From an uncultured Chloroflexia bacterium (lineage in GTDB: Bacteria; Chloroflexota; Limnocylindria; Limnocylindrales; CSP1-4): 64,000 nt of DNA. Made by a program: the position numbers and the translations under genes. Shown here piece by piece: positions 31,076 to 60,595 of this stretch (position 1 is its first letter; the number at the start of each line of letters is the position of its first letter). The notes beneath the pieces are model-generated. The model ran no database searches and was not told the origin of the DNA. It saw only the letters and a list, made by a program, of their open reading frames with translations. The stretch lies in NCBI GenBank assembly GCA_963800275.1, contig CAWDAI010000014.1, positions 46,745 to 110,744 on the forward strand, in the 5' to 3' direction.

Positions 31076-32522
31076 GAGTTCCGCAGGACCCGGCGGTCAC
31101 CCGGGACGCCGTGACCGTCGACAGGGCTGTGCGCCATGGCCATCACCGGCCGGGAGCGCCGATCAGTGAGCTGACAGGCAGATGCGTCCCGGTACCGAGA
31201 TGCGGGTTCCTCCCCACTGGGATCAGCAGCGAGGAGGCTGACATGCAGTCTGCCAGTATCACCCCGGGTCGTGGCTCGTCCGACCAGCCCGTCAGCGTCG
31301 CCGTCAGCGGTGGCGTGGACTGGGCCAGCGCCGATCATGCCGTGGCCGTCGTCGACGACGATGGCCGCCAGCTCGCCCGCGAGCGCGTCGAGCACACCGC
31401 CGCGGGCCTGCGGGCGATGGTGCGGTTCCTGGCCCGGCAGGGCGTGGCCGAGGTCGCCATCGAGCGTGGCGACGGCCCGGTGGTCGAGGCCCTGCTGGAG
31501 GCCGGGCTGACCGTCGTCGTCATCAGCCCCAACCAGCTCAAGGGCCTCCGTTCGCGCTACGGCTCGGCCGGCAACAAGGACGACCGCTTCGACGCCTACG
31601 TGCTCGCGGACACCCTGCGCACCGACCGGGCCCGGCTCCGACCGCTGACCCAGGACACCGAGGCCACCAGGACCCTGCGCGCCACCGTGCGGGCCCGTCG
31701 CGACCTGGTCATGCACCGCGTCGCGGTGTGCAACCAGCTGCGCGCCCACCTGCAGGGCACCTTCCCCGGCGCGGTCGGCCTGTTCCGGGAGCTGGACTCG
31801 CCGATCAGCCTGGCCTTCCTGGCCCGCTTCGATTCCCAGGAACGCGCCGACTGGCTCTCCACCAAGCGGCTGGCGGCCTGGCTGGCGGGCGTCGGCTACT
31901 GCGGCCGCAAGGACCCCGCCGACCTCCATGCCCGACTGCAGGCCGCACCCCGGGGCCCGGTCGGACCCGACGGTGCCGCCCGGGCCCACGTCACTCGCGC
32001 CCTGCTCGCCGTGCTCGGCGGACTGGTCGAGCAGATCGGCATCCTCGAGGCGCAGATCGCCGAGTAGCTCGCCCTCCACGCCGACGCCCATATCTTCCAG
32101 TCCCTGCCCCGGAGCGGCACCGTCCGCGCCGCCCGGCTGCTCGCCGAGATCGGCGACGTCCGCGCCCGGTTCCCCGATGCCGCCTCCCTGGCCTGTCTGG
32201 CCGGCGTCGCCCCCTCGACGAGGCAGTCCGGCAAGCATCGAGCCGTCACGTTCCGCTGGGCGGTCGACAAGGAGCTCCGCGACGCGATCTGCGACTTCGC
32301 CGGCGACTCCAGACGCGCCAACCCCTGGGCCGCGAGGGTCTACGACGACGCCATCGCGAGGGGCAAGGACCACCCCCACGCGACCCGCATCCTGGCTCGC
32401 GCCTGGCTCGGCGTGATCTGGCGCTGCTGGCAGGATGACACCGCCTACGAACCCGCCCGACATCGCGCCCTCCAGGCCACGCTGCCGACTGCCGAAGCAG
32501 CCCAGGGTTGACACAGGGCTAC
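31076..32522 (+). mobile_element. IS110-family insertion sequence sitting between the two ABC exporter genes
   Basis: Carries a single transposase gene of IS110 type. Its boundaries are set by the flanking ABC genes. IS110 elements lack inverted repeats and target duplications, so the exact ends cannot be read from the sequence. Confidence 0.7.
31243..32511 (+). pseudogene. IS110-family (DEDD) transposase interrupted by one in-frame TAG at 32065-32067
   Basis: The N-terminal domain is VAVSGGVDWASADHAVAVVDDDG...; the translation ends ...LEAQIAE at the TAG. The same frame continues directly as LALHADAHIFQSLPRSGTVRAARLLAEIGDVRARFPDAASLACLAGVAPSTRQSGK..., which is the conserved IS110 C-terminal domain. 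ATG at 31243 is preceded by GAGGAGG. Confidence 0.75.
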
Positions 32523-35829: not shown

Positions 35830-37092
35830 GTGACGAGACGGTCGTCGTGGTCGCGCACCGTGGCTGAAGACACGCTGCTGACGGGCATCCGCCTGTTCGT
35901 CATCTTCCTCACCGTCGCCGCCGCCGTGGGCCTGGTCATCCGCAAGACGGCCATCCCCTTCACCCTCGCCTTGGTGGCGGTCGGGCTCGTGGCCTCGCTG
36001 TTGCTGCCGGACCTGCAGCTGGAGGTGACGCCAGAGCTGGTCCTCGTCGTGCTCCTGCCCGGACTCGTCTTCGAGGCGGCCATCCACATCGACCTCACGG
36101 CCCTGCGGCGATCGGCCGGGAGCGTGGCGCTGCTGGCAGGACCGGGTGTCATCGTGGTCGCCGTCGTGGTGGCGGCCGCGCTCTTCCTGGGAACGGGACT
36201 GCCCCTCGAGCTCGGCTTCATCGTCGGCGCCATGGTGGCGGCCACCGATCCGGCTGCCGTCATCGCGACCTTCCGCCGGCTGGGCGTTCCGCACCGCCTG
36301 GCTGCTACCGTCGAGGGCGAGAGCCTCTTCAACGACGGCACCGGCCTGGTCCTGTTCGCCCTCGCCGTCTCGGCCATCACCACCACCGTGACCGCCCAGG
36401 ATGTGCTCGCGACGCTGGTAGTCACGGTCGCCGTGAGCATGGCCATCGGCCTGGGCGTGGGTTTCCTCGCCTCGCGCGTCCTGGCCACGGTGGAGGACCA
36501 CCTGCTCGAGCTGATGATCTCGGTATCAGCCGCCTATGGCACCTATCTGCTGGCGGACTTCTTCCACGAGTCGGGGATCATCGCCACCGTCATCGCCGGG
36601 ATCGTCATCGGCAACTACGGCCGCCGCATCGGCATCAGCCGCCGCGCGGCAGAGGCCATGGACACGGTCTGGGAGTTCGTGGCCTTCCTGCTGACTGCCC
36701 TCGTCTTCATGATCGTGGGCCTTTCGATCTCGTTGCCGAGTCTCACCGAGGCCCTGCCCTGGATCGCGTTCTCGCTGGTGGGAGCGCTGGTCGGTCGGGC
36801 CATCGCGGTCTATGGCCTGATGGGTAGCTTCCTCTGGCTCCGTCGCCGGTTCGGCCCGCCCGACCGGGAACCTCACCGCGGCTGGCTCCACGTCCTCAAC
36901 TGGTCCGGTCTGCGCGGGGCCGTGGCCGTGGCCATGGCCTTGTCCCTGCCCATGAACGTGCCCCAGCGGGGCCTGCTGCTCGAGATCACCTTCGGCGTCG
37001 TGCTCTTCACGCTCACCGTGCAGGGCATGACCATCGAACCGCTCGTGCGTCGTTGGCTCCGTCGTGACGAGACCGCCGCCCCAGGGTTGTGA
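35830..37092 (+). CDS. CPA1 family Na+/H+ (cation:proton) antiporter, NhaP-type
   Basis: Twelve to thirteen TM helices and the family's conserved motif LFNDGTGLVLF. The start codon is uncertain (GTG at 35830 or 35860). Confidence 0.8.
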   Translation: MTRRSSWSRTVAEDTLLTGIRLFVIFLTVAAAVGLVIRKTAIPFTLALVAVGLVASLLLPDLQLEVTPELVLVVLLPGLVFEAAIHIDLTALRRSAGSVALLAGPGVIVVAVVVAAALFLGTGLPLELGFIVGAMVAATDPAAVIATFRRLGVPHRLAATVEGESLFNDGTGLVLFALAVSAITTTVTAQDVLATLVVTVAVSMAIGLGVGFLASRVLATVEDHLLELMISVSAAYGTYLLADFFHESGIIATVIAGIVIGNYGRRIGISRRAAEAMDTVWEFVAFLLTALVFMIVGLSISLPSLTEALPWIAFSLVGALVGRAIAVYGLMGSFLWLRRRFGPPDREPHRGWLHVLNWSGLRGAVAVAMALSLPMNVPQRGLLLEITFGVVLFTLTVQGMTIEPLVRRWLRRDETAAPGL

Positions 37093-37188
37093 TGGACAGG
37101 CGGACGGGGCGGGTCACCGGCTGATCGATCGCCCACCCCGTCTTGTTCGATGGGGGCCCACGGATCACCGGGGCCCCGCTGGCCGCCG

Positions 37189-37785
37189 CTAGCCGATCGT
37201 GGCGCCGGCGGACTCGCGGGCCGAGTCCCGCTGGCCCTCGTGCGTGCCCTCGGCGAATTCCTCGAGCATCTTGTCCATGAAGGCCTCAAGGTCATCGGGG
37301 CGACGGCTGGTGACGAGGCCCTGGTCGACTCGGACCTCCTCGTCCACCCAAGTGCCACCGGCGTTACGGATGTCGGTAGCCAGGCTGGGGTAGGACGTCA
37401 GGGTGCGGCCCCCGACCACATCGGCCTCCACCAGCATCCAGGGCCCGTGGCAGATCGCGGCCACCGGCTTGGCCTGGGCGAAGAAGGAACGCACGAAGGA
37501 GACGGCCGTTCGATCCATGCGCAGCTGGTCGGGGTTCTTCACACCACCAGGGATGACCAGGCCGTCGTAGCCATCGGCCGAGGTGTCAGCGACCATACGG
37601 TCGACCTCGAAGGTGTCGGCCTTGTCCATGCCCTTCACCGCCCGGATCGACCCGCTCTCGAGCGAGATGAGTTCCGCTTCAGCGCCCGCCTCGCGGAGCG
37701 CGCGCATGGGCTCGGTCAACTCCACCTGCTCGACGCCGTCGGTGGCCAGGATGGCGATGCGCTTGCCGTTCAGATCGTGAGCCAT
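37189..37785 (-). CDS. DJ-1/PfpI family protein (type 1 glutamine amidotransferase-like; protease I / general stress protein 18 type)
   Basis: Nucleophile elbow AAICHGPWML and the family pattern GYDGLVIPGG. Confidence 0.85.
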   Translation of the reverse strand: MAHDLNGKRIAILATDGVEQVELTEPMRALREAGAEAELISLESGSIRAVKGMDKADTFEVDRMVADTSADGYDGLVIPGGVKNPDQLRMDRTAVSFVRSFFAQAKPVAAICHGPWMLVEADVVGGRTLTSYPSLATDIRNAGGTWVDEEVRVDQGLVTSRRPDDLEAFMDKMLEEFAEGTHEGQRDSARESAGATIG

Positions 37786-38023
37786 ATTCGGCCTCCTTTG
37801 TCACTTCATTCATGCGGTACCGTCGAATCGTCGTCCAGCCACCGACAGGGACGCGCAAAAGCCCGCGCGGCGGCAGGTTGCAGCTATCTGACAGCGGGCC
37901 GGCACGGGCTGGCCGCATGCAAGCGGACGGCGGCTGAGATGCCCGCTCGGCCAGCTGCAACGTTCGTGTAGCCCCCGCGCCGCTAGCCTGCGGTCCATGA
38001 CAGCGAGCAAGCGGAGCTAGCGC

Positions 38024-38773
38024 ATGGACCAGTCACAGCGCGCGGCCCTCAGGGCAGGCGCGGTGGTGGCCGCAGCGGCTGCCCAGGCACTCATCCCCAG
38101 CGTGGTGCCCCTCGTCGGTGTCGACCAAGAGGAGGAACGCCGCGGCGACACGCCTATCACTCCGCCGCCCTACGCCTTCTCCATCTGGGGCCCGATCTTC
38201 GCGGCCAGCATCGCCAACGCAGTGCAACAGGCGCTTCCGGCGCACCGCGGCGAGCCGGTCAACGAGGTCGGTGGGTGGCCCCTCGCGGGTGCGCACGCCC
38301 TGAACGCGACCTGGGCCCTGGCCGCCCAACCGGGACGGTTCGCGACCACGCCCTTCGTGCTGGCCGGCGCGGTGGCCTGCGCTGCTGCCGCCTATCGGCA
38401 GCAGCAGCGGGAGGCGGCCCCGGGCATCTCTCGGCTCGCGCCCGCGAGCACCGGGCTGCTCCTGGGCTGGATCAGCCTGGCCAGCGTGGTCAACACCGCG
38501 TCGGTTGCCCAAGAGCTCGGGGCCGAGCCCGATGCCCCGCTCGTGACGGCCATCTGGACCGCTGCCGCGGTGGCGGTGGCCGGGGTCGCCGGTGCGACCA
38601 TCCTGCGCAGCCGTCATGGCTACCTGCCCCTGGCCGCGTCGGTCGGCTGGGGCCTCGGTACCACCGCGGCCACGAGCGAACGGCCGCGCCTGGCCCGAGC
38701 CGGCGCGCTGGCGGGCACCGCCATGGTGGCTGCGGCCAGCGTGGCACGCCTGCTCCGTGCCCGTCCCTGGTAG
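38024..38773 (+). CDS. hypothetical polytopic membrane protein (weak resemblance to TspO/MBR-like Trp-rich proteins)
   Basis: Ala/Gly-rich TM segments. ITPPPYAFSIWGPIF is reminiscent of TspO, but this is not confirmed. Confidence 0.4.
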   Translation: MDQSQRAALRAGAVVAAAAAQALIPSVVPLVGVDQEEERRGDTPITPPPYAFSIWGPIFAASIANAVQQALPAHRGEPVNEVGGWPLAGAHALNATWALAAQPGRFATTPFVLAGAVACAAAAYRQQQREAAPGISRLAPASTGLLLGWISLASVVNTASVAQELGAEPDAPLVTAIWTAAAVAVAGVAGATILRSRHGYLPLAASVGWGLGTTAATSERPRLARAGALAGTAMVAAASVARLLRARPW

Positions 38774-38962
38774 AGCCGACCAGTCACTCGCGGTCGTGGT
38801 CTATCCGCACGCGGAGGTCGACCGGCCACTGGACTGCGATCACTCCCTGCAGTATGGTCCCGCGGTCGCCTGCGCAGCCAGCGCCGGCTCCTACCGGGGC
38901 GGGCTGGGCTGTGGTTCGGCGGCACGGGGGATCGCACCGGCCACTCGAAAGGATCCGGCGCC

Positions 38963-39628
38963 ATGGATCTGCCAAGGACGGGGAGCACCGTCAAGCGAGT
39001 CCTCGACGTCCTGGTCGCAGGGTGCGGGCTCATCGTGCTCGCTCCGCTCCTTCTGGCCATCGCCTTCGCGATCCGTTTCACGATGGGCGCTCCGGTGCTC
39101 TTCAGGCAGGAGCGGCCGGGACTGCAGGGCCGGCCGTTCACCATCCTGAAGTTTCGTTCCATGACCTCCGCCCGTGACGCGCAGGGACACTTCCTGCCCG
39201 AGGAGCTCCGCCTGACGCGACTTGGATACTGGCTGCGCAAGACCAGCTTCGATGAGATCCCCGAGCTCTGGAACGTCCTCGTCGGCGAGATGAGCCTCGT
39301 CGGGCCCAGACCGCTGCTCATGCGTTACCTGCCCCTGTACAGCCCCGCGCAGATGCGCCGTCACGACATGAGACCGGGGATCACGGGCCTGGCCCAGGTG
39401 CGGGGGCGTCACACGCTCCCCTGGGACACCCGCTTCCGGCTCGACGCCTACTACGTCGAGCATTGGTCCCTGCGACTCGACACCTGGATCATGCGGGAGA
39501 CCCTGGCCGTGCTGTGGCATGGCCAGGCGCACTTCGGTGGTGGCGATGGGGTGCCCTTCACCTGGCCCGGCAACGAGGAGCAGACAGGGCTCGAGGATGC
39601 ACCATCGCGATCGGAGAGCGCCACGTGA
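38963..39628 (+). CDS. bacterial sugar transferase (small PglC/WbaP-type polyprenyl-phosphate hexose-1-phosphate transferase)
   Basis: N-terminal TM helix and a catalytic region (RPFTILKFRSM, DEIPELWNVLVGEMSLVGPRP, PGITGLAQV). This is the first gene of the coupled operon. Confidence 0.8.
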   Translation: MDLPRTGSTVKRVLDVLVAGCGLIVLAPLLLAIAFAIRFTMGAPVLFRQERPGLQGRPFTILKFRSMTSARDAQGHFLPEELRLTRLGYWLRKTSFDEIPELWNVLVGEMSLVGPRPLLMRYLPLYSPAQMRRHDMRPGITGLAQVRGRHTLPWDTRFRLDAYYVEHWSLRLDTWIMRETLAVLWHGQAHFGGGDGVPFTWPGNEEQTGLEDAPSRSESAT

Positions 39629-40648
39629 AGGCGCGGATTCTCGGCGTCGACGCTGCCGAGTGGCGCGAGGTGTTGGTCCGCGATGGCCACGACGTCTATC
39701 ACCTGCCCCGCTATGTCACGCTCATGGCCGCCTACGACAGCGGGTCGCCCGCAGCCCTCTATGTGGAGGACGGACCGGGACGACGACTGCTGTTGCCGGT
39801 GATCCTGCGTGACCTCGGACAGGGGCGACAGGATGCGATCAGCCCGTACGGCTACCCCGGTCCGATCGCGCACCGCGGCGCCGATGCCGAGTTCGTCTCC
39901 GCGGCCATGGCCTGCGCCGTCGAGCTACTGGCACGGGAGCACGTGGTGGCACTCTTCGTTCGTCTGCACCCATTGCTTCCCATCGACGGACTCGACGCCG
40001 TCGGCACCCTCGTGAACCACGGCCAGACTGTGGTCATCGACCTCTCTCTGAGTGAGGAGCAATTGTGGCGCGAGATGCGCAAGAACCACCAGCGCGACAT
40101 CGCGCGCTCCCGACGCGATGGGTGCCGCTTCGCCTTCGAGGGATTCGCCAGCGTCATTCGAGGCCTTCAAGCGCATCTACCGGGAGACGATGGAACGGCG
40201 CGATGCCGATGACTGGTACAAGTTCGATGATGCCTATTTCGATGGACTGCGGGAGGCACTAGGCCACCACCTGCACCTGGCAGTAGCGCGTGTTGACGGG
40301 GAGATCGCGGCTGCAGGGCTCTTCTCCGAGTGCGACGGCATCGTGCAATTACAGCTCTCCGGTTCGGATGAACGATTCCGGAACGCCAGGCCGACCAAGC
40401 TGCTCTACGACGGGGTCCGCAGGTGGGCCAAGCAACGCTCGGCGCGATGGTTCCACCTCGGCGGCGGACTTGGTGCGCAGGAGGATTCGCTCTACCACTT
40501 CAAGTCGGGCTTCTCCCCGCGCCGCTGCGACTTCATGACCCTGCGTCTCATCGTGCGTGACGATGACTATGCGGCCCTGCTGCAAGAGCACGCGATCGAT
40601 GTCGACCCAGCCGACCTGGGCGGGTTCTTCCCGGCATACGCGCGATGA
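39625..40648 (+). pseudogene. FemAB-like / BioF2-like GNAT-fold acyltransferase, frame-disrupted near 40150
   Basis: Frame 1 (GTG 39625, overlapping the upstream stop) gives ...HQRDIARSRRDGCRFAFEGF and then stops. Frame 2 continues with the expected EAFKRIYRETMERRDADDWYKF...HLGGGLGAQEDSLYHFKSGF. The local near-duplicate ttcgccttcgagg / ttcgaggccttcaag marks the indel site. Confidence 0.6.
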
Positions 40649-40865
40649 GCGTCTTGCTACCCACCGTTCCCAAGCGGCCCTCGACGCGCGCGCCCAGGCG
40701 TCGCACCGGGCTCGTGGGTCGGACAGCACCCGGGGCGACGCATCCCGCCGGGCTCCCGGGAAAAGGTGGTGCGCCGCTGCACCGTTCGTGCCTCGAGGCC
40801 TTCACCTGCGGATGCGCATCTGGTACTCATGGCGTTCTTGTCAGCGAACCAGCCATCGGGAGCAC

Positions 40866-43048
40866 ATGCATCCGCCCCATGACCCCCATCCGGCGTCACC
40901 GTTGATGGCAGCCGCCAAGGCGCCCCTTCGCGCGACCGACTGGGCCAGTCAGGTCGATGCCAGCGTGCCCGCGGTGATCCTGACCGCGTCGCCGCGCGCC
41001 CGACGATCGCCACATGGCGGACTCGGCATCATCCGCAGCCTCGGACGGTTGGGTGTGCCCGTCTACACCGTCGACTCGGAATCCGACGCGGACCGGGCTC
41101 GTACTCCAGGTATGTGCGGGAGCGGTTCGTCCTCGAGATCGACACCGATCGTCCCGAGCGGACCATCGACGCCCTCGTCGGCATCGGCCGGAGGCTGGCG
41201 CACCGGCCGCTGCTGATCCCGACCTGGGACGAGGCCTCGATCATGGTCTCGGACCATGCTGGCATCCTGTCGGAGCACTTCCGCTTCCCGCTCCAGCCAC
41301 CCGGACTGGCCCGCTCGCTGGCGAGCAAGCAGTCGATGTATCTGCTCGCCCGGGACCACGGGGTGCCGACGCCCATGGCGTCATTCCCCCGGAACATGGA
41401 CGACGTCGAGGCCTATCTCGCAGCGGCGGCCTTTCCCGTCATGCTCAAGGGCATCACAGGCAATCGCCTGCTCAAGCACGCGGGTCGCAAGATGGCCATC
41501 GTGCAGACGCCCGCGGAGTTGCGCCGGCTGTACGCCGAGATGGAAGATCCCGACGACCCCAATCTCATGCTGCAGGAGTACATCCCCGGCGGCGATGACG
41601 CGGTTTGGATGTTCAACGGCTACTTCGATGCCGATTCTCGATGCCTGCTGGGCATCACGGGCCGCAAGTTGCGGCAGACGCCCGTCTACACCGGCGCTAC
41701 GAGCCTGGGGGTGTGCCTACACAACGAGCAGGTCGATGCCACCACGCGGCGCTGGATGGCGGCGCTGGGCTACCGGGGCATCCTCGATATCGGCTACCGG
41801 TTCGATGCGCGCGACGGCAGCTATAAGGTCCTCGACGTCAACCCCCGTATCGGCGGCACGTTCAGGCTGTTCGTGGCCAGCAACGGCATGGATGTGTCGC
41901 GGGCCCAGTACTTGGACCTCACGGGCCAGCCTGTCCCACCGTCGGTGCCAGTGCGGGGCCGAAAGTGGCTGGACGACCGGGACTTCGGATCGAGTTTGAC
42001 CTACTGGCGGGACGGCCGGCTCACGGCACGCGACTGGCTGGCTTCGCTCGCCGGCATCGAGGAGACGGTCTACTTCGCTCGAGATGACCTCGCGCCCTTC
42101 GTGCAGCACAGCGCCTACCTACTGCGCTCCGCGGTCCCGTCACGCGGCCACAGGCCGGATGGTGGTGCCGTTGCACAGCAGCGCATCGACCACGCCTTCC
42201 ATGCAGCTGCCGACGAGTGGCGCGACCTCTACCGGCAGGAGTCGATACAGGCCCGCATCTACCAGGAACGGCGGGCCCGCGCCCTGGAATGGATCGATTC
42301 CCTCCGACTGCCGCCGGGGTCGCGGGTCCTGGAGGTCGGCTGCGGCGCGGGCCTGACCTCCGTCGATCTGGCCGGACGGGGGTTCGAGGTGACGGCCATG
42401 GATTCGGTCCCGGCCATGGTCGACCAGACCCGGCGTCTGGTCCAAGAGGAAGGTGTCGCCGATCGGGTCAGCGTGCTGTCCGCCGACACGCACGACTTGC
42501 CCTTCCCCGACGAGGCCTTCGAGCTGGTGCTGGCGCTGGGAGTGCTGCCGTGGCTGCATTCGCCGGAGCGCGCGATGGCCGAGATGACGCGGGTGCTGCG
42601 GCCCGGGGGCCATCTGCTCGCCACGACCGACAACGCCTACGGTATGCACTACATCCTCGATCCGCGCATGAATCCGCTGGTCGCGCCGCTCCGGCGGCTG
42701 GCTGCTCGCCTGCTTCGCCTGCTCGGGCTCCGCCGCCGTACCTCGGTCGTGGCCCGTCTGGATCCGCCGCGCCGGTTCCGGCGGCTGGTTCATGGAGCGG
42801 GCCTGCGGCCCCTGCGTGAGTCGACCCTCGGCTTCGGGCCTGTGACCGTCAGGCGTCGGCCGGTCCTGTCGCCGCGGGAGGACCTCCGGTTGCACCGGAC
42901 GCTTCAGGACCTCGCCGACCAGGGAGTGCCCATCGTGCGATCGACCGGAGCGCAGCACATGATCCTCGCCCGGCGCCCGGAGCCAGCCGCGGGGCCCACG
43001 GTGGCGCCGCGCGGACCCTCCGAGCCAACGGAAGGAGACCGAGCGTGA
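40866..43048 (+). pseudogene. ATP-grasp ligase fused to a C-terminal class I SAM-dependent methyltransferase, with a -1 frame break near 41095
   Basis: The pre-ATP-grasp N-terminus (PAVILTASP...HGGLGIIRSLGRLGVPVYTVDSES) is in frame 3. It continues in frame 2 as SRYVRERFVLEID... through the ATP-grasp core (LQEYIPGG, GYRGILDIGYRFDARDGSYKVLDVNPRIGG) and the methyltransferase motif I VLEVGCGAG. The start (40866 or 40905) is uncertain. Confidence 0.6.
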
Positions 43049-43888
43049 AACGACATCCGCCCCTGGAGCGCGAGTTCGAGGTCCCCGACGGCCGACTGCA
43101 CACGGTCGACTACCTCGCCGCCATCGGCGTGGACGCGCTGGAGCCGGCCAGCTGCCCCTTCGATCCCGGCTACGACCCTGCCACTTTCGAAGGCCACCTC
43201 ATCCAGAGCAGCCACCTGATGGAGACGATGAAGATCTCCATGGCCTGCTGGCAGATCGCCGACGAGGCGGCCATGCGCTGGAAGGTGGCGGCCTGTGACC
43301 ACTACGGCGTAGCCACCACGACCGGGGGCGGGCCCTTCGAGGTGGCCGTGCAGCAGGGCCGGCTGGACATGTACCTGGACCTGGTGGCCGACATGGGTAT
43401 CGGCGGGATCGAGGCCGGTGAGGGGTTCACCGAGATGCGGCTGGCGCCGCACCGCGTGGTGGCACGGCAAAGGCCGTGGCCTCAGCGTGCAGGTCGAGCT
43501 GGGCAAGAAGCACGAGGGCACCTTCACCTCAGACGTCACGGGCGCGCTCATCACGCAGGGCCAGGAGTGGTTGGCTGCCGGCGCCGAGCGCGTGGTCATC
43601 GAGGCCCGCGAGAGCGCTCGCGGCATCGGTTGCTTCGACGAGGACGGCCGGTTCCGGGCGGACACGGCCGATCGGTTCGCCGAGGTCCTGGGCCTGGAGA
43701 CCTGTCTGTTCGAGGCGCCCACCAAGCCCAGCCAGTTCGCGCTGCTCGACCACTTCGGTCCCGCCGTCCACCTCTGCAACATCCGGCTCGAGGAGCTGTT
43801 GCGGGTGGAGATCTACCGCCGCGGGCTGCACTCCGACGCCTTCCAGCAGCCGGCCCTGCGCCCGCCGCCCATGACCCCGGAGTCATGA
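43045..43888 (+). pseudogene. comA: (2R)-phospho-3-sulfolactate synthase (ComA/PSL synthase family), frame-disrupted near 43460
   Basis: The N-terminal two-thirds (frame 1) matches the ComA pattern ...GGGPFEVAVQQGRLDMYLDLVADMGIGGIEAGEGF. The C-terminal third lies in frame 2 (...VQVELGKK...ITQGQEWLAAGAERVVIEARESARGIGCFDEDG...FEAPTK...FGPAVHLCNI...RRGL). GTGA overlap with the upstream gene and ATGA overlap with comB. Confidence 0.6.
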
Positions 43889-44650
43889 GCACGATGGAGC
43901 GCTCGGTCGTGATCGACTGCTTTCCGGCCAGCGCTCAGCGCTACACCGCCGACCACGTCGTCGTGGCGGTCGACGTCATCCGGGCCACCACCATGGCCGT
44001 GACGGCGCTGGCTCTGGGACGACGATGTCTGCTGGCCACCGACGTGGATGCTGCCTTCGCTCTCCGCGCACGTCTTGGAGGCGCCACACTCGCGGGCGAG
44101 CTGCACGGCAACATGCCCGACGGCTTCGACCTCAACAATAGCCCGGCCGCTCTCGAAGATCGTCGCGAAGATAGCGGGATCTGATCATGCTTTCCACGTC
44201 CGGGAGCACGCTCATGCTGGCAGCCGGCACCGGCTCGAGCCGGCGCGTTCGCAGCCTGCTTCCGCAATCACACGGCCACGGCCAGGGCCCTGGCCGGACA
44301 CGACGGGCCCATCGCCATCATCGGTGCCGGCAGTCGCAGCGAGTTTCGCGAGGAGGATCAGATGTGCTGCGCCTGGATCGCGGCGGAGTTGCTGGCGCAC
44401 GGCTACTCGGCCGCCGACGCGCGCACGCTCGAGATCGTGGAGCGTTGGCGGGCAGCCCCAGCGGAGGCCTGTGATGTCGGTAACAGCGTCGCCTACCTGC
44501 GACGGAGCGGGCAGCTCGCCGACCGCGACTTCATCGTTTCACACGTCAACGACTTGGAGATGGTCTGTGCGATCGAGGGCAATGAAGTCCGCCCCGCGGG
44601 TCCGCTGCCGGTGGGCGTCCGTGCTGATGCGCGGCGCCGTCGGGCGCCGC
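43885..44650 (+). pseudogene. comB: 2-phosphosulfolactate phosphatase (ComB family) with two frame breaks about 50 nt apart (about 44183 and 44235); 3' end uncertain
   Basis: Frame 1 gives MSTMERSVVIDCFPASAQRYTADHVVVAVDVIRATTMAVTALALG...GFDLNNSPAALEDRREDSGI and then stops. Frame 3 gives IMLSTSGSTLMLAAGTG. Frame 1 resumes with ...FAACFRNHTATARALAGHDGPIAIIGAGSRSEFREEDQMCCAWIAAEL.... All of this follows the ComB pattern. Confidence 0.55.
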
Positions 44651-44727
44651 TGAGCCAGGTCGCCAACGCTCCGCTCGCCCTAAAGCCCGATCAACCGGGG
44701 GGTTCTCACGTCGCCCCCAGGCAAGGC

Positions 44728-44844
44728 CCTTGTCAAGCCCGTCGCCTGCGCTCCGGCAATGTGAAGAAGGCGACACCTCCCTTGTCAACCCCCTTGTCAA
44801 CCCCCTACACTACGGCTCTAGCGCCTTGTCAAGACTTGACAAGG
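44728..44844 (+). promoter_or_regulatory. cluster of four CCTTGTCAA motifs including a perfect palindrome CCTTGTCAAG-a-CTTGACAAGG (44824-44844), upstream of dnaG
   Basis: Direct copies at about 44728, 44780, 44792 and 44824, plus an inverted copy. The motif contains a TTGACA (-35-like) hexamer. It lies about 125 nt upstream of the dnaG TTG start. Confidence 0.45.
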
Positions 44845-44968
44845 CCACACGTGTGTCCGTCATCAGCGCCGACGCACGCGAGCTCGGGACATGGCGGCCG
44901 GCCGTTCGAGGACCGCACCCGGAGCTCGGGGGCGCAGCGGACACCAGGCAGCAAGAGGCACTTCGCGT

Positions 44969-46916
44969 TTGTCAGTCGGCGTCGCCGCATCGGTCAAGGA
45001 GAAACTGGACATCGTCGAGTTCGTCGGCGAGACCGTCCAGCTCAAGAAGGCCGGGACCATCTTCAAGGGGCTCTGCCCGTTCCACGGGGAGAAGACGCCC
45101 TCGTTCACGGTCACGCCTGCGCGTGAGCGCTGGCACTGCTTCGGTTGTGGGCGCGGCGGGGACCTCTTCAACTTCGTCATGGAGCGCGACGGGGTGGACT
45201 TCCCGACCGCTCTGCGCACGCTGGCGGGCCGGGCCGGCGTGGAGCTCAACGAGCGCACCACGCGCGAGGACGCCCAGCGCAAGCGCATCCGCGACGCGCT
45301 CGACGGTGCCATCGCCTTCTACCACACGGTGCTCACGCAGCACGCCACGGGCAAGGCCGCGCTCGAGTACCTGCACGGCCGCGGCTTCAGCGACGAGACC
45401 ATCGAGACCTTCCGGCTGGGCTGGGCGCCGGACGCCTGGGATGCCATGAACACCGCCGTCCGTCGCCACCGCCCGGGCGTCAGCGAGGCGGACCTGGAGG
45501 CCGCCGGTCTGGTCAGCCGGCGCCGCTCGGGCCGGGGCGTGTACGACCGCTTCCGCGCCCGAGTCATCTTCCCCATCCGCGACGCCTCCGGTGGGGCCAC
45601 CGGCATGACCGGCCGCATCCTCGGCGCCCAGGGCCCCGACAGCGGTCCCAAGTACCTCAACACGCCCCAGACGCCGCTCTTCGACAAGGGCCGCACGCTC
45701 TATCTCATCGACCGCGCCAAGTCGGCCATGCGCAAGTCCGGCGTGGCCGTGCTCGTGGAGGGCAACACCGACGCGCTCATGGCCCACCAGGCCGGCTTCG
45801 AGAACGTGGTCTGTTCCATGGGCACCGCGCTGACCGCGGGCCAGGTCGAGCTGCTCACCCGCTACGCCCCGCGCATCGCGCTGGCCTACGACGTGGACGC
45901 GGCAGGACAGGGGGCAGCGGCCTTCGGCGCGACCGAGCTGACCGCGCTGGTGGGCGAGATCGAGCGCTCGCCCTATCGCGGCCGCCTGACCGACGTGGAC
46001 GTGGTGCGCCTGCCCGACGGGCGCGACCCCGACGAGATCATCCGCGACGACCCCGACACCTGGCGCGAGGCCACCGAGCAGCCCCAGCCGATCATGGAGT
46101 TCCTCATCGACCGCGCCGCCTCGCGCCACGACCCCTCCACCGTCCCGGGTCGCGAGAAGCTGGTGGCGGAGGTGCTGCCCACGCTGCGCACCATCGGCGA
46201 CCCGGTCCGCCGTGACGGCTACCTGCAGCTGCTGGCCCGCCGCTCGGGCGTGGAGGAGCGGACCTTGCTGGAAGCGCTGCGGCGCCGCGACGAGCCACTC
46301 CCCGGTGGCGCCCGGGAGGGGGCGCAGGTGGGTGCGCGCATCAACCTCGAAGCCGTCATGGCCCAGCCCGACGCCCTCGACCCGCGCGCCGTGGAACGAG
46401 CCATCGAGCCCGCGGAGGCGACCCTGCTGCGGGTGCTCATGCGCTATCCCAGCTACTACGCCAAGACGGCCGAGTCGCTGTCGGTCGATCCCTTCGTGAC
46501 CACACCCGCGCGCGAGCTGTGGAAAGCGCTCGGGAGTGCGCTCACCCAGCAGGGCACGGACCACTTCGAGCTCAAAGCCTTCATCGAGGCCCAGGAGCCG
46601 ACCACCCGCACGGTGGCCCAGACGCTGATGGCCCGGACCTCCCCGCTGCCCGATGACGAGGGTGCCATCCACCAGGCCATCGACCAGAGCCTGCTGACCC
46701 TCGAGCGAGCCCGACTGGCCGAGCAGATCGAATACACCCGCGCCCGCCTCGCCGACGCCGAGGCTGCGCATGACCAGGCCGAGCTGACACGGCTCCAGGG
46801 CGAGGTCCTGGAGCTGCAGCGGCGGCGCTTGGAGCTCGACCGAGCCGTGAACGACACGTCACTGCTCGCCCGACGACGAATCCAACCCAAGCAAGCGAAG
46901 CAAGTGGAGGTAGCAC

Positions 46917-49014: not shown

Positions 49015-49443
49015 GCTGATGGCTGCCGCCCTGAAACCTGCGGGGGCTCAACTCGACGTCCCGGTCTGCGTACTCGCAGGCACCAGCCCTCCGGCGGCTC
49101 AAGGCGGCAGATCCAGCCCTCCGATGGCGCAAATCCGCGGATCGGGTTGCAGTCGCGTTGTGATGAGCCCTCGGACGACTCATCGGTGGCCGTGCGGGCG
49201 CCAGTGTGCCGCCGCCCGAGTCCGTGTCCCGCGGCTGGGGACCACGGCGGGCTTCAGGCGCTGCTGCCCGCCGGCTCGTTGCCGCTGATGGCGGCCGCCC
49301 TGAAACCTGCGGGGGCTCAACTCGACGTCCCGGTCTGCGTACTCGCAGGCACCAGCCCTCCGGCGGCTCAAGGCGGCAGATCCAGCCCTCCGATGGCGCA
49401 AATCCGCGGATCGGGTTGCAGCCGCGTTGTGATGAGCCCTCGG
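49015..49443. repeat. ~160-bp direct repeat, two copies (49015-49174 and 49283-49443, about 97% identical)
   Basis: gctgatggcKgccgccctgaaacctgcgggggctcaactcgacgtcccggtctgcgtactcgcaggcaccagccctccggcggctcaaggcggcagatccagccctccgatggcgcaaatccgcggatcgggttgcag occurs twice in the rpoD 3' intergenic region. Confidence 0.75.
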
Positions 49444-49580
49444 GTGACTCACCCCGGTCAGCCGGGTCCTGATGAGCCCTCGGGTGACTCACCCCGGAAA
49501 CAGCCGGGTGGTGACGAGCCCTCGGGTGACTCACCCCGGACAGCCGGGTGGTGACGAGCCCTCGGGTGACTCATGGGCGG
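49421..49580. repeat. 41-42-bp tandem repeat, about 4 copies (gtgaYgagccctcgggtgactcaccccggNNcagccgggtg)
   Basis: Copies can be read directly. It abuts the second copy of the 160-bp repeat. Confidence 0.7.
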
Positions 49581-49685
49581 GCGTGTGGTTGCGAGTGCGC
49601 CCGGACGACAGCCCAGTCGCCAGCGCGCCAGACGACGCGCACGACCGGGCGTTCGGGTCCGGGATGGTCAGGGCTGCCAGATCCG

Positions 49686-50339
49686 TCAGAGCAGGACGAT
49701 GGCGTTCCCGCCCGGGTCGGCCGGCAGTGCCAGGGCACGCAGTGCCGTTCGGCCGTCGACCGGGAAGGCGGCCCGGAAACCAGTCCCTGCGGCTGCGAGG
49801 AAGCTCCGGTTGTGCCGCGTGTCAGCCAGCAGGAGGATCACGTGATCGACCATGCCGTCCCGCTGCTTCAACGCCAGGCGGCGCTGTAGCTCCTGCGCGT
49901 CGCGGGCTCGTGTCTCGGCCTCCACCCCGATCCGAACCGCTGCGATGCGGATGAGGGCATCCCAGGCCCTGCGGTCGCCGGCGTTCGGGAAGGCCACCTC
50001 CGTGGACCAGGAGGCACCGCTGCCCAGTCGCGCGTGGAGCCGCTCGAGCAGGCGGACGTGCGCCTGGTCACGCAGCGGCGCACCGGCCGGGTACGCGCGG
50101 AGGTGCAGGTCCAGCCCGACGACCGCACATGCCCGAGCCAGCAGGGGCAGTGGCACGGCGTGCGCTTCGGCGCGCTCGAGGCGACCCCAGTGCGTCTGCG
50201 ACAGGCCCGCGCCCGCCGCGGCAGTGCGCTGGCTCAGGTCGTGGTTGAGTCGAGCCAGGCGGATCTCACGCCCGAGGTCCGCGAGTGCGTGCGCCGCGGC
50301 TCGGTCGGCTCGGTCGGTGCGCTTCTCGTGACCAGCCAT
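49686..50339 (-). CDS. XRE-family HTH transcriptional regulator with a C-terminal domain of unknown function
   Basis: N-terminal HTH (EIRLARLNHDLSQRTAAAGAGLSQTHWGRLERAE). Divergent from the deaminase gene. Confidence 0.65.
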   Translation of the reverse strand: MAGHEKRTDRADRAAAHALADLGREIRLARLNHDLSQRTAAAGAGLSQTHWGRLERAEAHAVPLPLLARACAVVGLDLHLRAYPAGAPLRDQAHVRLLERLHARLGSGASWSTEVAFPNAGDRRAWDALIRIAAVRIGVEAETRARDAQELQRRLALKQRDGMVDHVILLLADTRHNRSFLAAAGTGFRAAFPVDGRTALRALALPADPGGNAIVLL

Positions 50340-50388
50340 GCAGCGGATGGTGGCGCCGGCTCATTCACTGCCGCTTATCCTTCGCTGC

Positions 50389-51033
50389 ATGACGCCTGTC
50401 CGCTACCCGACCGACGATGACCTGGCCCGCTTCACCTCGGACCGAAACGCGTTCATCGGCCGTCTGCTCGACGTCATCGAGCACGAGATCGTGCCACGCA
50501 CCCGCGCGGGCGTGGAGAACGGTGACAAGATCTTCGGCGGTGCCGTGCTACGCAAGTCGGACCTCGCGACCGTCGTGGCCGTGACCAACCACGAGAGCGC
50601 CAACCCGCTCAACCACGGCGAGATCGCGACCATCAATGCCTTCTACGCCATCCCGCGGGACCAGCGGCCGGCCGCCGCGGACACCATCTTCCTCAGCACC
50701 CACGAACCCTGTCCGCTTTGCCTCGGTGGCCTGACCTGGGGTGGCTGGGACAACTTCTTCTACCTCTTCAGCTACGAGGACACCACCGACGCCTTCGCCA
50801 TCCCTCATGACGTGCGCATCAACGAGGAGATCTGGCGCGTGCCCGACGGCGAGTACGAGCACAAGAACCGCTACTGGTGCGCCTGGCACATCCCCGAGCT
50901 GATCGCCGGCTGCGAGCCCGAAGTCCGCGCTGGGCTGGCAGCTCGCCGTGCCGCCCTCGTGACCACCTACGACGAACTCTCGGCCACGTATCAGCGCTCG
51001 AAGGGCACGGGTGCGGAGATCCCGCTGCCGTAG
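50389..51033 (+). CDS. CDA-fold nucleoside/nucleotide deaminase family protein (zinc-binding H-x-E ... PCxxC)
   Basis: NHGEIATINAF (H-x-E) and HEPCPLCLGG (PC..C) are spaced as in cytidine/dCMP/tRNA-adenosine deaminases. The start at 50389 is MTPVRYP. Confidence 0.6.
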   Translation: MTPVRYPTDDDLARFTSDRNAFIGRLLDVIEHEIVPRTRAGVENGDKIFGGAVLRKSDLATVVAVTNHESANPLNHGEIATINAFYAIPRDQRPAAADTIFLSTHEPCPLCLGGLTWGGWDNFFYLFSYEDTTDAFAIPHDVRINEEIWRVPDGEYEHKNRYWCAWHIPELIAGCEPEVRAGLAARRAALVTTYDELSATYQRSKGTGAEIPLP

Positions 51034-51078
51034 TTCGCTGCTCGTCTCCACTCGTGGAAGCTATGCGACACTGCGCCG

Positions 51079-51489
51079 ATGTGGAAACGGGTCGATGGCT
51101 TGCGCACGCTCGAGCTCGGCACTCCGGGGCCTTCCCGCGACGAGCTGAACCGCCTGGTGCTGGAGGGCACGAAGTTCGCCACCGCCGGCCTGTGGCGGAC
51201 GGACTACGAAGCTGAGGGCGAGCCGCTCGAGGACATCGGCGAGCGCTTGGTGATGCTCGACAGCGACGGCGAGCCGGTCGCCATGCTGGAGGTCACGCGC
51301 GCGGAGGTCCACGCCTTCCTCGAGGTGCCGTGGGAGCTCGCACGCGACGAAGGGGAGGGCTTCACCTCCATCGATGATTTCCGAGACGGCTATCGGAAGG
51401 AATACCGGTCGGCAGGTGTGACGCTCGCCGATGACGACCCGATGGCCTGCGTTTGGTTCCGACTCCTGGGCCCATACCCGGCGCCATAG
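51079..51489 (+). CDS. ASCH domain protein (PUA-like fold)
   Basis: ASCH signature LEGTKFATAG (GxKxxT). 136 aa. Confidence 0.65.
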   Translation: MWKRVDGLRTLELGTPGPSRDELNRLVLEGTKFATAGLWRTDYEAEGEPLEDIGERLVMLDSDGEPVAMLEVTRAEVHAFLEVPWELARDEGEGFTSIDDFRDGYRKEYRSAGVTLADDDPMACVWFRLLGPYPAP

Positions 51490-51634
51490 GCAGGCGCGAG
51501 AAGAGGCCGGCCCCGCGTCGGACGAGCCACCTTGGAAGTCAGTGCCTGCGGTAGCTGACGCAGCCCCGCGGGTCCGGCGGCACTTGACCCGCGGACCGTA
51601 GCGATGAACATGGAAGGGCACACGGGAGTCTGCC

Positions 51635-52033
51635 TTGAACTTGGTGGTGCTTCAGGCGCTGGCGGCGGCTGGTCTGCTGGGCGTCAGCACGTGGTGGTAC
51701 CGGCGCAGTCGCGCCGAGGCATCGGCCAACGCCGGCTGCGGCTTGTGGCTGGCGTGGATCGTCTTCGGCATCGTCTCGGTGATCGCCCTCGTCCTGATCA
51801 CGCCACGTGGCGACGGTGATCTCAACGCGTTGCTCCTCGGGATCGTGGTGGCCTGGGTCTTCTGTGGCGCCGGGATCGTGCTCGGCCTGCGCCTGCTCAC
51901 GCGAGCGTCACCCGACTTTGCCCAGGAGCTCGTCGGTCTGACCATGCTGCTGGCCATCGGGCTCGCGATGCTGACGTTCATGGCCCTGCTCGCCGAAGCG
52001 CTGGGCCATTCTGACGTCAGCCGGCCGGAGTAG
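51635..52033 (+). CDS. hypothetical small membrane protein (4 TM helices)
   Basis: Hydrophobic profile; TTG start; no family recognised. Confidence 0.4.
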   Translation: MNLVVLQALAAAGLLGVSTWWYRRSRAEASANAGCGLWLAWIVFGIVSVIALVLITPRGDGDLNALLLGIVVAWVFCGAGIVLGLRLLTRASPDFAQELVGLTMLLAIGLAMLTFMALLAEALGHSDVSRPE

Positions 52034-52055
52034 GCTCCAGCGCAAGCTCGAGCCG

Positions 52056-52398
52056 ATGTTCATGACGCGGCTGCCCTACCAGCCCTACATCCGCATCCGC
52101 GGCCGAACGACGGGGCAGCTGCGATCGGTCCCGGTCCGTCCTCTGAGGTCGGTGACGCGTGGAACCTCGTCTCGCTGCCGGGGAACAGCAACTGGGCACG
52201 GAACCTGCGCGCCAGCGGCAGCCCGGACCTCGGCGAGAAGGGCGAGGTGCGCTCGATCACCGTGACCGAGGTCTTCGGGGACGAGCAGGCGCCGCGGTGG
52301 CCGAGTACCTCGCCTCGAGCACCTACCGGCCCACCATCAAGTTGTTGAGCGGGCGCTTGCCGAACCCGGCGGATCACCCTGTCTTCCGCATCGACTGA
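52056..52398 (+). pseudogene. small conserved-family ORF (MFMTRLPYQP... ...ADHPVFRID) broken by two -1 frame breaks
   Basis: The three frame segments read in order as MFMTRLPYQPYIRIRGRTTGQLRSVPV / SLPGNSNWARNLRASGSPDLGEKGEVRSITVTEVFGDEQAP / AVAEYLASSTYRPTIKLLSGRLPNPADHPVFRID. The pattern is recognisable as one small family protein (about 110 aa), but the family is not identified. Confidence 0.35.
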
Positions 52399-52501
52399 CG
52401 GTGCGTCTTCGGGGGCGGCGCGGTGCTGCGCACTTCGTCCTGACCAGTCGCCCGGCGAGGCGCCAGGGCCTTGGGATCGGCGCGATCGTCCCGAACGGTG
52501 A

Positions 52502-53086
52502 CTAGCGGTCCGCCGTGGTCGCGTAGATATCGGCTTCGGGGCGCTCTCGGTCCTCTTCGTCCGCGCTGAACATCTCCACTTCCTTCCAGCCGAAGAGCGG
52601 CCGCACGAGGGCCCCGGGCAAGGTGGTGATGCTCACGTTGTATTGGTAGACCTGGTTGTTGAACAGCTCGCGCCTTCGGGCGATGAGCGTCTCCAGCCGC
52701 TCGATCTCCTCCTGCAGGGCCATGACGTTCTCGTGCGACTTGAGCTCCGGGTAGTTCTCGACGGTGGCGAACAGGGACCGTACGGCCGATGAGGTCTGCT
52801 CGGAGACGACGGCCTGGTCGTGGATCGGCGCCTCTGGTTCGTAGGCCGCTCGAGCCCGCGTGACATCCTCGAGCACCTGCGCCTCGAAGGCCATCACCCC
52901 GCGCACGGCGGAGACCAGGTTGGGCAGCTGGTCGTGGCGCTGCTTGAGCACCACGTCGATGTTGGCCCAGGCCCGCTGGCAACGTCGCTGCAGCGAGACC
53001 ACGTTGTTGTACGTGACCACCACCAGGAACACCAGCAGGATCAGCGCCAGCGCGACACCGATCCCGACCGCGAGCTGCAGACCCAT
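52502..53086 (-). CDS. LemA family protein
   Basis: N-terminal TM helix plus the LemA core (TYNNVVSLQRRCQRAWANIDVVLKQRHDQLPNLV...VENYPELKSHENVMALQEEIERLE). Confidence 0.85.
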   Translation of the reverse strand: MGLQLAVGIGVALALILLVFLVVVTYNNVVSLQRRCQRAWANIDVVLKQRHDQLPNLVSAVRGVMAFEAQVLEDVTRARAAYEPEAPIHDQAVVSEQTSSAVRSLFATVENYPELKSHENVMALQEEIERLETLIARRRELFNNQVYQYNVSITTLPGALVRPLFGWKEVEMFSADEEDRERPEADIYATTADR

Positions 53087-53088
53087 CG

Positions 53089-54228: not shown

Positions 54229-54374
54229 AGTGACGCGGAAGTACTCCCGACCACGAAGCGGCAGGGCGCCGCGGAGAGGGCAGGCGAGGAGATGCTATCC
54301 TTCGGTCGCACCGCGATTTGTGGTGTTTCGCGTCGTCGCGTCCGGGGCCATTCCCACGCACGAGCGCTGCGCGT

Positions 54375-54449
54375 TCCGGCGTAGCTCAGTGGTAGAGCGG
54401 TCGGCTGTTAACCGATTGGTCGTAGGTTCGAATCCTACCGCCGGAGCCA
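54375..54449 (+). tRNA. tRNA-Asn (anticodon GTT), CCA encoded
   Basis: Cloverleaf readable: acceptor tccggcg/cgccgga, D-arm agctcagtggtagagc, anticodon loop ctGTTaa, T-arm ggttcgaatcc. Confidence 0.85.
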
Positions 54450-54839
54450 TCTTCCCCTCGTGGAACGCCCTCTGTGGGCGACTCCGTCCCACTCCGGACG
54501 ACCCCGTCTTGATGCTGCCTGAAATGCTGCTCATGAGCTCGGTTGCGAGCGCCTCGTGCTATCGAGGCTGGCCAAGCGGACCGAGACACCCATCCCGAGG
54601 TGGCCATGGCGGCCTTCAAGGCGGAGGTGACCGAGGTGCTCCGACAGGCGGATCGCCGCAGCTACACCACGGCCATCGGTTCGCTGCGGCGGATCGAGCG
54701 CATCAGCGTCGCCCTGGGCCGGTAGGGCGAGTTCCGGGCGTACGCGGCGGCGGTCCGCGAGGACAACAAGCGCCGGCCCGCGTTCTGCTCGATGTTCGAC
54801 GCTGCTCGCTTCCCGTAGGGGCGTAGCCTGAGGGTAGCG

Positions 54840-60565: not shown

Positions 60566-60595
60566 CGCACGCGTTCCGGACAGAGCGGCCCGTAG

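Follow-up and report, generated by a model that had tools for sequence, protein, structure and literature searches.

An operon of an uncultured Chloroflexia bacterium couples ComA- and ComB-family enzymes to an ATP-grasp ligase and carries a widely conserved cassette predicted to tailor glycans with sulfolactate

The 64,000-nucleotide stretch of DNA analyzed here (the window; positions 46,745 to 110,744 of contig CAWDAI010000014.1, assembly GCA_963800275.1, from an uncultured Chloroflexia bacterium of the order Limnocylindrales) contains five genes that form a translationally coupled operon, in the order of a small sugar-phosphate transferase (Bac_transf), a FemAB-like transferase, a fusion of an ATP-grasp ligase with an S-adenosylmethionine (SAM)-dependent methyltransferase, a ComA-family protein, and a ComB-family protein. 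Four of the genes are frame-disrupted as assembled, and these indels are very probably artifacts of sequencing or assembly and not the marks of pseudogenes. The combination of ComA, ComB, and the ATP-grasp enzyme, to which the methyltransferase is often added, forms a cassette that is conserved in many phyla of bacteria and in some archaeal metagenome-assembled genomes (MAGs). The explanation that best accounts for these observations overall, and which seems somewhat more likely than not, is that the coupled operon is intact, that its breaks are artifacts, and that the conserved cassette ligates sulfolactate onto an amine of a glycan precursor.

All five family assignments made in an earlier note, which drew on the sequence alone, are borne out by profile searches, together with a structure model and Foldseek for the ATP-grasp fold. 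The first gene (38963-39628, + strand, as are all the features of the operon) is intact and encodes a Bac_transf protein of 221 aa, similar in size to PglC, that matches Pfam PF02397 with 203.6 bits over 177 of the 179 profile positions and NCBIfam TIGR03025 with 247.6 bits (C-terminal domain only). The second (39625-40648) would encode 340 aa if unbroken; its second half matches PF13480 (Acetyltransf_6; 44.4 bits, cut-off 22) and PF02388 (FemAB; 35.7 bits, cut-off 24), and the protein scores 29.9 bits against the 260 bits of the XrtA/PEP-CTERM FemAB equivalog TIGR03019, so that it falls outside that group. The third gene (40866-43048; 726 aa if unbroken) encodes the fusion, in which an N-terminal ATP-grasp domain of about 430 aa is followed by a class I SAM methyltransferase. 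The latter is recognized by Pfam (Methyltransf_11, 86 bits on 41114-43048), and the translation contains the SAM-binding motif VLEVGCGAG.

The ATP-grasp domain is weak by Pfam (ATPgrasp_Ter, 19.7 bits; cut-off 29.1), no NCBIfam model covers the ATP-grasp enzyme of the cassette, and a comparison with the sequences in the PDB gave nothing informative, the best match being pyruvate carboxylase (E = 8e-4). An AlphaFold model was therefore examined of an unbroken homologue of the fusion, P0003 (mean predicted local distance difference test score 84.6), which has two domains. The N-terminal domain of this model is related with a Foldseek probability of 1.0 to PurK, biotin carboxylases, and the L-amino-acid ligases 3VOT and 4WD3, and the folds nearest to its C-terminal domain are those of CmoM, RebM, AtmM, and MitM. 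As modeled, the N-terminal domain is an ATP-grasp fold; the fold search identifies the superfamily and not the substrate. Many homologues of this domain carry the Joint Genome Institute (JGI) label "D-aspartate ligase" (EC 6.3.1.12), which is not adopted here, the context being exopolysaccharide (EPS) synthesis and not peptidoglycan.

The fourth gene (43045-43888) would encode a ComA-family, phosphosulfolactate synthase-like protein of 281 aa if unbroken; in the window it is split over two frames that match PF02679 with 42.8 and 89.4 bits (Pfam cut-off 25.2). Residues 38-268 of the unbroken ComA in L082, a near-identical contig from another assembly, align with residues 18-249 of Methanocaldococcus jannaschii ComA (1QWG; E = 5e-28), and the motifs ELGKK, IEARES, and FEAPTK are kept between them. 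YitD (1U83) is also detectable as a homologue (E = 7e-13), the operon protein being closer to the archaeal enzyme. This ComA belongs to a diverged clade, for which sulfite and phosphoenolpyruvate (PEP) are inferred to be the substrates from family membership. The last gene (43885-44683; about 263-266 aa if unbroken) encodes a ComB-family, 2-phosphosulfolactate phosphatase-like protein that is likewise split in the window, with matches to PF04029 (2-ph_phosp) of 60.5 and 33.3 bits (Pfam cut-off 26.4).

Start/stop overlaps can be read from the window sequence as GTGA at 39625-39628, GTGA at 43045-43048, with AAGGAG standing before it, and ATGA at 43885-43888. The earlier description of the five genes as chained by such overlaps is therefore correct for these junctions and incorrect for the one between the FemAB-like and fusion genes, which are separated by a spacer of 217 nt (40649-40865, with ends from the L082 gene calls mapped onto the window). 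The spacer has no Rfam match, and the only Rfam match in the whole window, which has a G+C content of about 70%, is to a tRNA. Four-nucleotide overlaps are frequent in operons and are unremarkable alone. The operon is flanked upstream by a DJ-1/PfpI gene and a membrane protein gene, and downstream by intact dnaG and rpoD.

The exact indels in the window copy were obtained by aligning it with L082, and frame switches were also located by three-frame translation and by tblastn with unbroken homologues. The FemAB-like gene has an additional G at 40140, with the tblastn frame switch falling between residues 172 and 173, and the fusion gene has an additional A at 41080 and an additional G at 41085. 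In the ComA gene, single nucleotides are missing at 43463 and 43474, within a patch of 62 nt that has 7 mismatches. In the ComB gene, the loss of a C at 44172 and the gain of a C at 44230 offset each other, garbling 19 codons and producing an in-frame TGA at 44182-44184; an additional loss of 2 nt in the tail, at 44659, was missing from the earlier note. The positions given there for the disruption of four of the five genes (about 40150, about 41095, about 43460, 44183, and 44235) are each within about 15 nt of a frame-breaking indel. The break sites at 41080 and 44172 fall in GATC motifs. The broken fusion gene leaves an open reading frame of 644 aa (P0001), whose 90%-identity cluster also contains an unbroken protein of 726 aa (P0121); an exact look-up of this open reading frame and of the run-on ComA frame (379 aa) found no other assembly on record, a weak negative. 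All 53 invariant columns of a 23-sequence family alignment are retained in the window copy.

Contig L082 (ENA ERZ25039549; 8,108 bp), which carries P0121, aligns to positions 36975-45074 of the window at 99.57% identity, the differences being 13 substitutions and 16 gap openings that total 22 positions. All five of its genes are unbroken (221, 340, 726, 281, and 263 aa), so that the intact copy whose existence the earlier note had proposed to check is present in another assembly of the same population; its Bac_transf protein is 100% identical to that of the window. A second contig, L085 (Logan ERR11594398), comes from an independent k-mer assembly and is 100% identical to L082 over 3,051 nt; it is without the three insertions of the window, and its FemAB-like gene is unbroken (340 aa). 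In a sister strain (contig L083), identity is 89.8% in the first two genes and 96.8% in most of the operon. At the break sites of the window, L083 has the L082 sequence, with the single exception of 40140, where it has the extra G of the window together with a compensating GG. The window appears to be a chimera of two haplotypes at this site, because the extra G of L083 is present there without its GG. L083 has frameshifts of its own at other sites, in the transferase, the FemAB-like gene, and the fusion gene, while its ComB gene is unbroken (266 aa).

To distinguish error from decay, a control stretch of 7.7 kb (49388-57089) was compared with contigs from the same ENA assembly as L082. The control contains 41 substitutions and 2 indels, whereas the operon part contains about 9 indel events and 13 substitutions (Fisher p = 5e-4). 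Substitution divergence is 0.16% in the operon as opposed to 0.5% in the control, and the indels are distributed as about 9 events in 4.6 kb of the operon, 2 in the control, and none in the 3.2 kb upstream. The indels between the window and L082 are many relative to the substitutions and, since decay should add both, this suggests consensus error rather than decay; that each long-read assembly shows a private set of breaks argues that the operon is underlyingly unbroken. The related ENA assemblies have Flye-style contig names, and one of them holds a protein identical to that of a Microflora Danica long-read MAG, suggesting that they are probably Nanopore-only data of the Microflora Danica type. 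In that project, Nanopore reads alone were assembled with Flye and then polished once with Medaka (PMC12313526). The clustering of the indels most likely results from the collapse of a strain mixture in a hypervariable locus.

It should be considered whether the frameshifts are instead real, the window containing a recently inactivated and decaying copy of the operon while sister strains have intact ones. Such a history would fit the concentration of indels in the operon relative to the control and upstream sequences, the unbroken state of the essential neighbors dnaG and rpoD, and the accessory, strain-variable character of a locus in whose first two genes the identity of L083 drops to 89.8%. 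However, at least 8 independent indels of 1-2 nt, several of them paired 5-58 nt apart, would have had to accumulate at near-zero divergence, with substitutions below the level of the control and with the family-invariant residues all kept; also, the L083 assembly has the same kind of private breaks elsewhere, and the site at 40140 resembles a chimera. L082 and L085 are unbroken, L083 is broken at other sites, and substitutions are not raised, which is not the pattern of true decay, and we regard inactivation in this strain as improbable. The suspicion of assembly indels voiced in the earlier note is strongly supported by the near-identical unbroken contigs and by breaks that are private to the window. 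Two other causes were considered and rejected: uniform random sequencing noise as the sole cause does not explain the clustering of the indels, which collapsed strains or motif-specific errors fit better, and programmed frameshifting is incompatible with the same sites being read straight through in L082, L083, L085, and homologues from other species.

Several further features of the assemblies are relevant to sequence quality. At 38773/38774, just where the operon region begins on its upstream side, the L083 contig starts and that of Logan, L092, ends; this boundary is hypervariable and probably tangles assembly graphs. At 40374, 41335, and 41633 of the window there are G/A differences in a CGAT context, with G in the window and L083 and A in L082 and L085; these may be real single-nucleotide polymorphisms or motif-linked base-calling errors in the other assembly. 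At the end of the window (60078-64000, - strand), a UvrD/AddA-like helicase-nuclease gene (UvrD-helicase, UvrD_C, PDDEXK_1) is split over at least 5 frames, whereas its counterpart in contig L090 is unbroken (1,269 aa), with DNA that is 86.6% identical and 83 gap openings in the alignment; the region of 60-64 kb is a second, much worse indel patch in the window. In L003 (10001-12988), the nearest of the Chloroflexia MAGs that share this gene order, the methyltransferase domain is also out of frame, another sign of frequent frameshifts in these long-read MAGs. A scan of JGI metagenomes for either allele of the site at 44172 returned zero matches, from which the species appears to be absent from those metagenomes, and an exact look-up of DnaG, by which the comparison was to be carried further downstream, gave no record.

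The distribution of the cassette was examined by scanning one genome per GTDB species; the counts that follow come from searches with the unbroken L082 proteins in the loci of the best 80 of 350 genome matches, all of them MAGs. Among the candidates scored, relatives of the fusion protein number more than 3,500. The 80 loci span at least 8 phyla, including Chloroflexota, Acidobacteriota, Actinomycetota, Bacteroidota/Ignavibacteria/Chlorobi, Calditrichota, Gemmatimonadota, Proteobacteria/Myxococcota, and Bathyarchaeia, and one of them is from a Methanomicrobiales bin. ComA and ComB are both present in the ATP-grasp locus in 69 of the 80, several of the 11 exceptions being at contig ends, and both lie within 3 kb of the ATP-grasp gene in 63. 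A methyltransferase homologous to the C-terminal domain of the window protein is fused or within 3 kb in 47, and its occurrence as a separate gene was confirmed. Other genes are less frequent: Bac_transf was found in 31 of the loci, a DegT aminotransferase in 10, a LarA-like protein in 9, and a FemAB-like protein in 7. Despite a gene order that varies (ComA-ComB-ATP-grasp in most loci, ATP-grasp-ComA-ComB in the Chloroflexia group), the genes stay linked. The recurring neighbors include GT4 and GT2 glycosyltransferases, Wzy_C, Poly_export/SLBB, NusG-like regulators, PEGA/AAA proteins, sigma-54 response regulators, polysaccharide deacetylases, PIG-L de-N-acetylases, UDP-glucose dehydrogenase, and beta-helix proteins, indicating that the surroundings of the cassette are mostly EPS loci. 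The possibility, raised in the earlier note, that the arrangement is fortuitous is incompatible with this recurrent linkage, usually inside polysaccharide loci. No gene for ComC, ComDE, or XcbC-E is present in the operon or among the neighbor families common to at least 4 of the 80 loci, and no sulfite-supplying gene is conserved beside the cassette among the neighbor families of these loci.

The closest relatives of the operon are in MAGs labeled uncultured Chloroflexia, with 65-73% protein identity. In two of these (L001 and L002; 65% identical and unbroken), the FemAB-like, fusion, ComA, and ComB genes are together, with neighbors that encode a PglF-like dehydratase, a hexapeptide acetyltransferase, a second FemAB-like protein, and a Bac_transf protein. 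A more distant locus, L086 (3398-15150), in which the fusion protein is 58% identical, is informative with respect to the intermediate. Its FemAB-like and fusion genes are followed by a gene for a 457-aa Lar_N (LarA-like) protein and then by ComA and ComB, and the overlaps in the series fusion-LarA-ComA-ComB are of 4, 4, and 8 nt; just upstream are LarC (Ni_insertion), LarB (AIRC), a LarE-like PP-loop protein, DegT, and Bac_transf. LarA enzymes are racemases or epimerases of 2-hydroxyacids. That a LarA-like gene should lie between the genes for these two enzymes, the ligase and ComA, speaks for a free 2-hydroxyacid, which would be sulfolactate after the action of ComB, as the intermediate passed to the ligase, and the LarA-like protein of L086 is a candidate sulfolactate racemase.

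Some variants of the locus may also be mentioned. In Chloroflexia loci that have the ATP-grasp gene but are without ComA and ComB (L007, 8796-9941, and 4 others), a gene of the ornithine cyclodeaminase/mu-crystallin family adjoins it, and may be an alternative substrate-supply module that has been swapped in. In L056 (11358-11978) and 6 other loci, from Bathyarchaeia, a PIG-L de-N-acetylase gene directly follows the ATP-grasp gene, an arrangement resembling the deacetylase-then-ligase logic of mycothiol and bacillithiol synthesis. A search of plasmids for cultured hosts yielded only ATP-grasp proteins with 25-28% identity, from Priestia, Bacillus, and Deinococcus, which represent a different family and were set aside.

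In methanogens it is established that ComA forms (R)-phosphosulfolactate from sulfite and PEP and that ComB dephosphorylates the product, and XcbB of Xanthobacter catalyzes the ComA step (PMC9457059). In the pathway proposed for the cassette, ComA would similarly add sulfite to PEP to give (2R)-phosphosulfolactate, and ComB would remove the phosphate to give free (R)-sulfolactate, the configuration of which would be inverted in some lineages by the LarA-type racemase. In the reactions of ATP-grasp enzymes, a carboxylate is activated by conversion to an acyl phosphate. Because sulfolactate has a carboxylate but no amine, it is expected to be the acyl donor and a sugar-borne amine the acceptor, so that the ATP-grasp enzyme would activate the carboxylate of sulfolactate and couple it to an amine of a sugar precursor. 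The acceptor could be an amino sugar, either produced by DegT-type aminotransferases or bared by PIG-L or polysaccharide deacetylases, and in the window operon it may be an amino acid that is first attached by the FemAB-like enzyme. The methyltransferase could then cap the unit, for example at the 2-hydroxyl, and the small Bac_transf protein would anchor the modified sugar on polyprenyl phosphate, to be exported as an exopolysaccharide or envelope glycan that bears the sulfonate. In its boldest form, the proposal is that the cassette, with or without the methyltransferase and LarA-type racemase, represents an undescribed and widespread pathway for the amide linkage of sulfolactyl groups to the amino sugars of exopolysaccharides or envelope glycans in Acidobacteriota, Chloroflexota, Actinomycetota, Bacteroidota and their relatives, Gemmatimonadota, and Bathyarchaeia; this is put forward tentatively, as a possibility that falls somewhat short of an even chance.

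A number of observations weigh against ligation of sulfolactate to a glycan precursor by an intact operon. The indels are clustered in the operon, unlike simple random noise. Both of the enzymes that would supply the acid fall below the NCBIfam equivalog cut-offs, ComA with 147.8 as compared with 280 bits for TIGR03849, and ComB with a best score of 73.6 as compared with 332 bits (NF010700), all eight of the NCBIfam models being below their cut-offs. The substrate and acceptor attributed to the ATP-grasp enzyme are inferred. Some loci, such as L088, are without obvious polysaccharide genes; the operon in the window itself has housekeeping genes on both sides, and genes for a glycosyltransferase, a flippase, or a polymerase are absent from its vicinity; and no sulfolactate-containing glycan has been reported in the literature searched.

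If the product of the cassette were a soluble sulfonated small molecule, such as a sulfolactyl-amino acid, an osmolyte, or a cofactor-like compound, or a modified peptide, then the restriction of the conserved core to ComA, ComB, and the ATP-grasp enzyme, with or without the methyltransferase, and the existence of loci like L088 would be readily understood; the nearest structural relatives of the ligase include L-amino-acid ligases that make free dipeptides, and Bacillus spores hold free sulfolactate. This is nevertheless unlikely in view of the location of most loci amid genes for Bac_transf, glycosyltransferases, Wzy, Poly_export, DegT, and deacetylases, and of the composition of the window operon, where two of the five genes encode a polyprenyl-phosphate sugar transferase and a FemAB-like enzyme. 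A different doubt concerns the acid. With ComA and ComB both under the equivalog cut-offs and no conserved sulfite-supplying neighbor, the enzymes of this clade might make another 2-hydroxy (phospho)acid that is then ligated, and a LarA-type racemase would suit any 2-hydroxyacid. We think this quite improbable, since the operon ComA aligns end-to-end with the M. jannaschii enzyme (E = 5e-28) and retains its motifs, and the pairing of ComA with ComB is canonical for phosphosulfolactate. To our knowledge, all characterized members of the ComA family (ComA, XcbB, and YitD) add sulfite to PEP. For ComA and XcbB this activity is documented (PMC9457059).

Modification of the stem peptide of peptidoglycan (lipid II), on which FemAB proteins and ATP-grasp enzymes of the D-aspartate ligase type act, might be suggested by the FemAB-family gene in the operon and by the JGI name given to many members of the ATP-grasp family. 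The Bac_transf priming transferase is foreign to peptidoglycan synthesis, however, no more than 7 of the 80 loci have a FemAB-like gene with the cassette, the usual neighbors are EPS genes, and the cassette is present in archaeal MAGs as well, so that a role in peptidoglycan seems highly improbable. Ligation of sulfolactate to a glycan-precursor amine remains the reading that is preferred here.

Some features of the window that are separate from the operon were also recorded. An IS110-family transposase gene at 31078-32511 (+ strand) has its DEDD_Tnp_IS110 and Transposase_20 halves in-frame, parted by a stop codon at 32065-32067. A tRNA-Asn gene (54375-54449) is followed by genes for a DUF2293 protein, a Fic protein, and a HipA_C protein whose profile match ends at position 155 of 213. 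Up to 57089, contigs L089 and L090 are 99.4% identical to the window, beyond which they have different genes (baeRF_family2), and the stretch beside the tRNA-Asn gene looks like a strain-variable island. L089 contains a tandem duplication of about 5.56 kb (3704-7407 and 9268-12971) of a GIDE-DUF2293-Fic segment that is present as a single copy in the window.

With regard to annotation, the four apparent pseudogenes of the operon are not to be taken for genes in decay; they are signs of a poor consensus sequence in an assembly of long metagenomic reads, and annotation of the contig calls for frameshift-aware handling. With regard to function, the cassette is viewed as a glycan-tailoring module composed of known enzyme families in an undescribed, widely conserved combination, with a predicted sulfolactyl-modified glycan as product. 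The known fates of the product of ComA and ComB are coenzyme M and the free sulfolactate of spores, whereas here these enzymes are tied to a dedicated ATP-grasp enzyme in polysaccharide loci, a linkage that recurs across many phyla that dominate soils. The earlier note was not aware of a described pathway with such a coupling, and this agrees with a search of the open literature (subscription journals not being covered) that revealed no paper joining ComA and ComB to an ATP-grasp enzyme, no sulfolactyl conjugate, and no EPS locus for phosphosulfolactate. If the prediction is correct, the modification would give microbial exopolysaccharides a new kind of anionic decoration, a carbon-bonded sulfonate, and would define a new class of sulfonated glycoconjugate, with a bearing on the chemistry of biofilms and soil aggregates and on cation binding; it could also be a microbial source of the sulfonate fraction of soil organic sulfur.

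One system with which the cassette has to be compared is the biosynthesis of coenzyme M by ComA, ComB, ComC, and ComDE in class I methanogens and the bacterial route that includes XcbB, which share with it the first two enzyme families and presumably the same chemistry (PMC9457059). Unlike the coenzyme M pathway, the cassette has no equivalents of ComC, ComDE, or XcbC-E among its conserved neighbors, being coupled instead to an ATP-grasp enzyme, a methyltransferase, and glycan genes, and its hosts are mostly non-methanogenic soil bacteria; on the evidence of the operon and the neighbor families of the 80 loci, it is not part of coenzyme M synthesis. The yitC/yitD genes of Bacillus subtilis are a ComB/ComA pair that makes sulfolactate outside coenzyme M metabolism. 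The sulfolactate of the Bacillus spores stays free, and the pair is without ligase or glycan genes, whereas the cassette has both. Among glycan systems, the Pgl-type and EPS priming loci and the XrtA/PEP-CTERM loci share the presence of a small Bac_transf protein and a FemAB-family protein in a polysaccharide context, and relatives of the cassette adjoin PglF-like dehydratases, DegT aminotransferases, and hexapeptide acetyltransferases, but the sulfolactate module belongs to no described Pgl or PEP-CTERM system.

There are also parallels in logic with two ligases that form amides on envelope components. The D-aspartate ligase of Enterococcus faecium (Aslfm) works with an aspartate racemase. 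There, as proposed for the cassette, an ATP-grasp enzyme attaches a small acid, furnished by a dedicated neighboring enzyme and in some loci also a racemase, to an amine of an envelope precursor; the likeness drawn here is one of logic, and unlike the situation in Aslfm, the acid in the cassette would be a sulfonated hydroxyacid, the racemase is LarA-type, and the context is EPS. In the HS:2 capsule of Campylobacter jejuni, the ATP-grasp amidoligase domain of Cj1438 and a phosphatase are responsible for an amide on a capsular sugar. This resembles the cassette in that a small building block is made by dedicated enzymes, including a phosphatase, and that an ATP-grasp enzyme forms the amide. The polarity is opposite, however, the sugar providing the carboxylate and the small molecule the amine in HS:2, whereas sulfolactate has only a carboxylate to offer and would be joined to an amine on the sugar.

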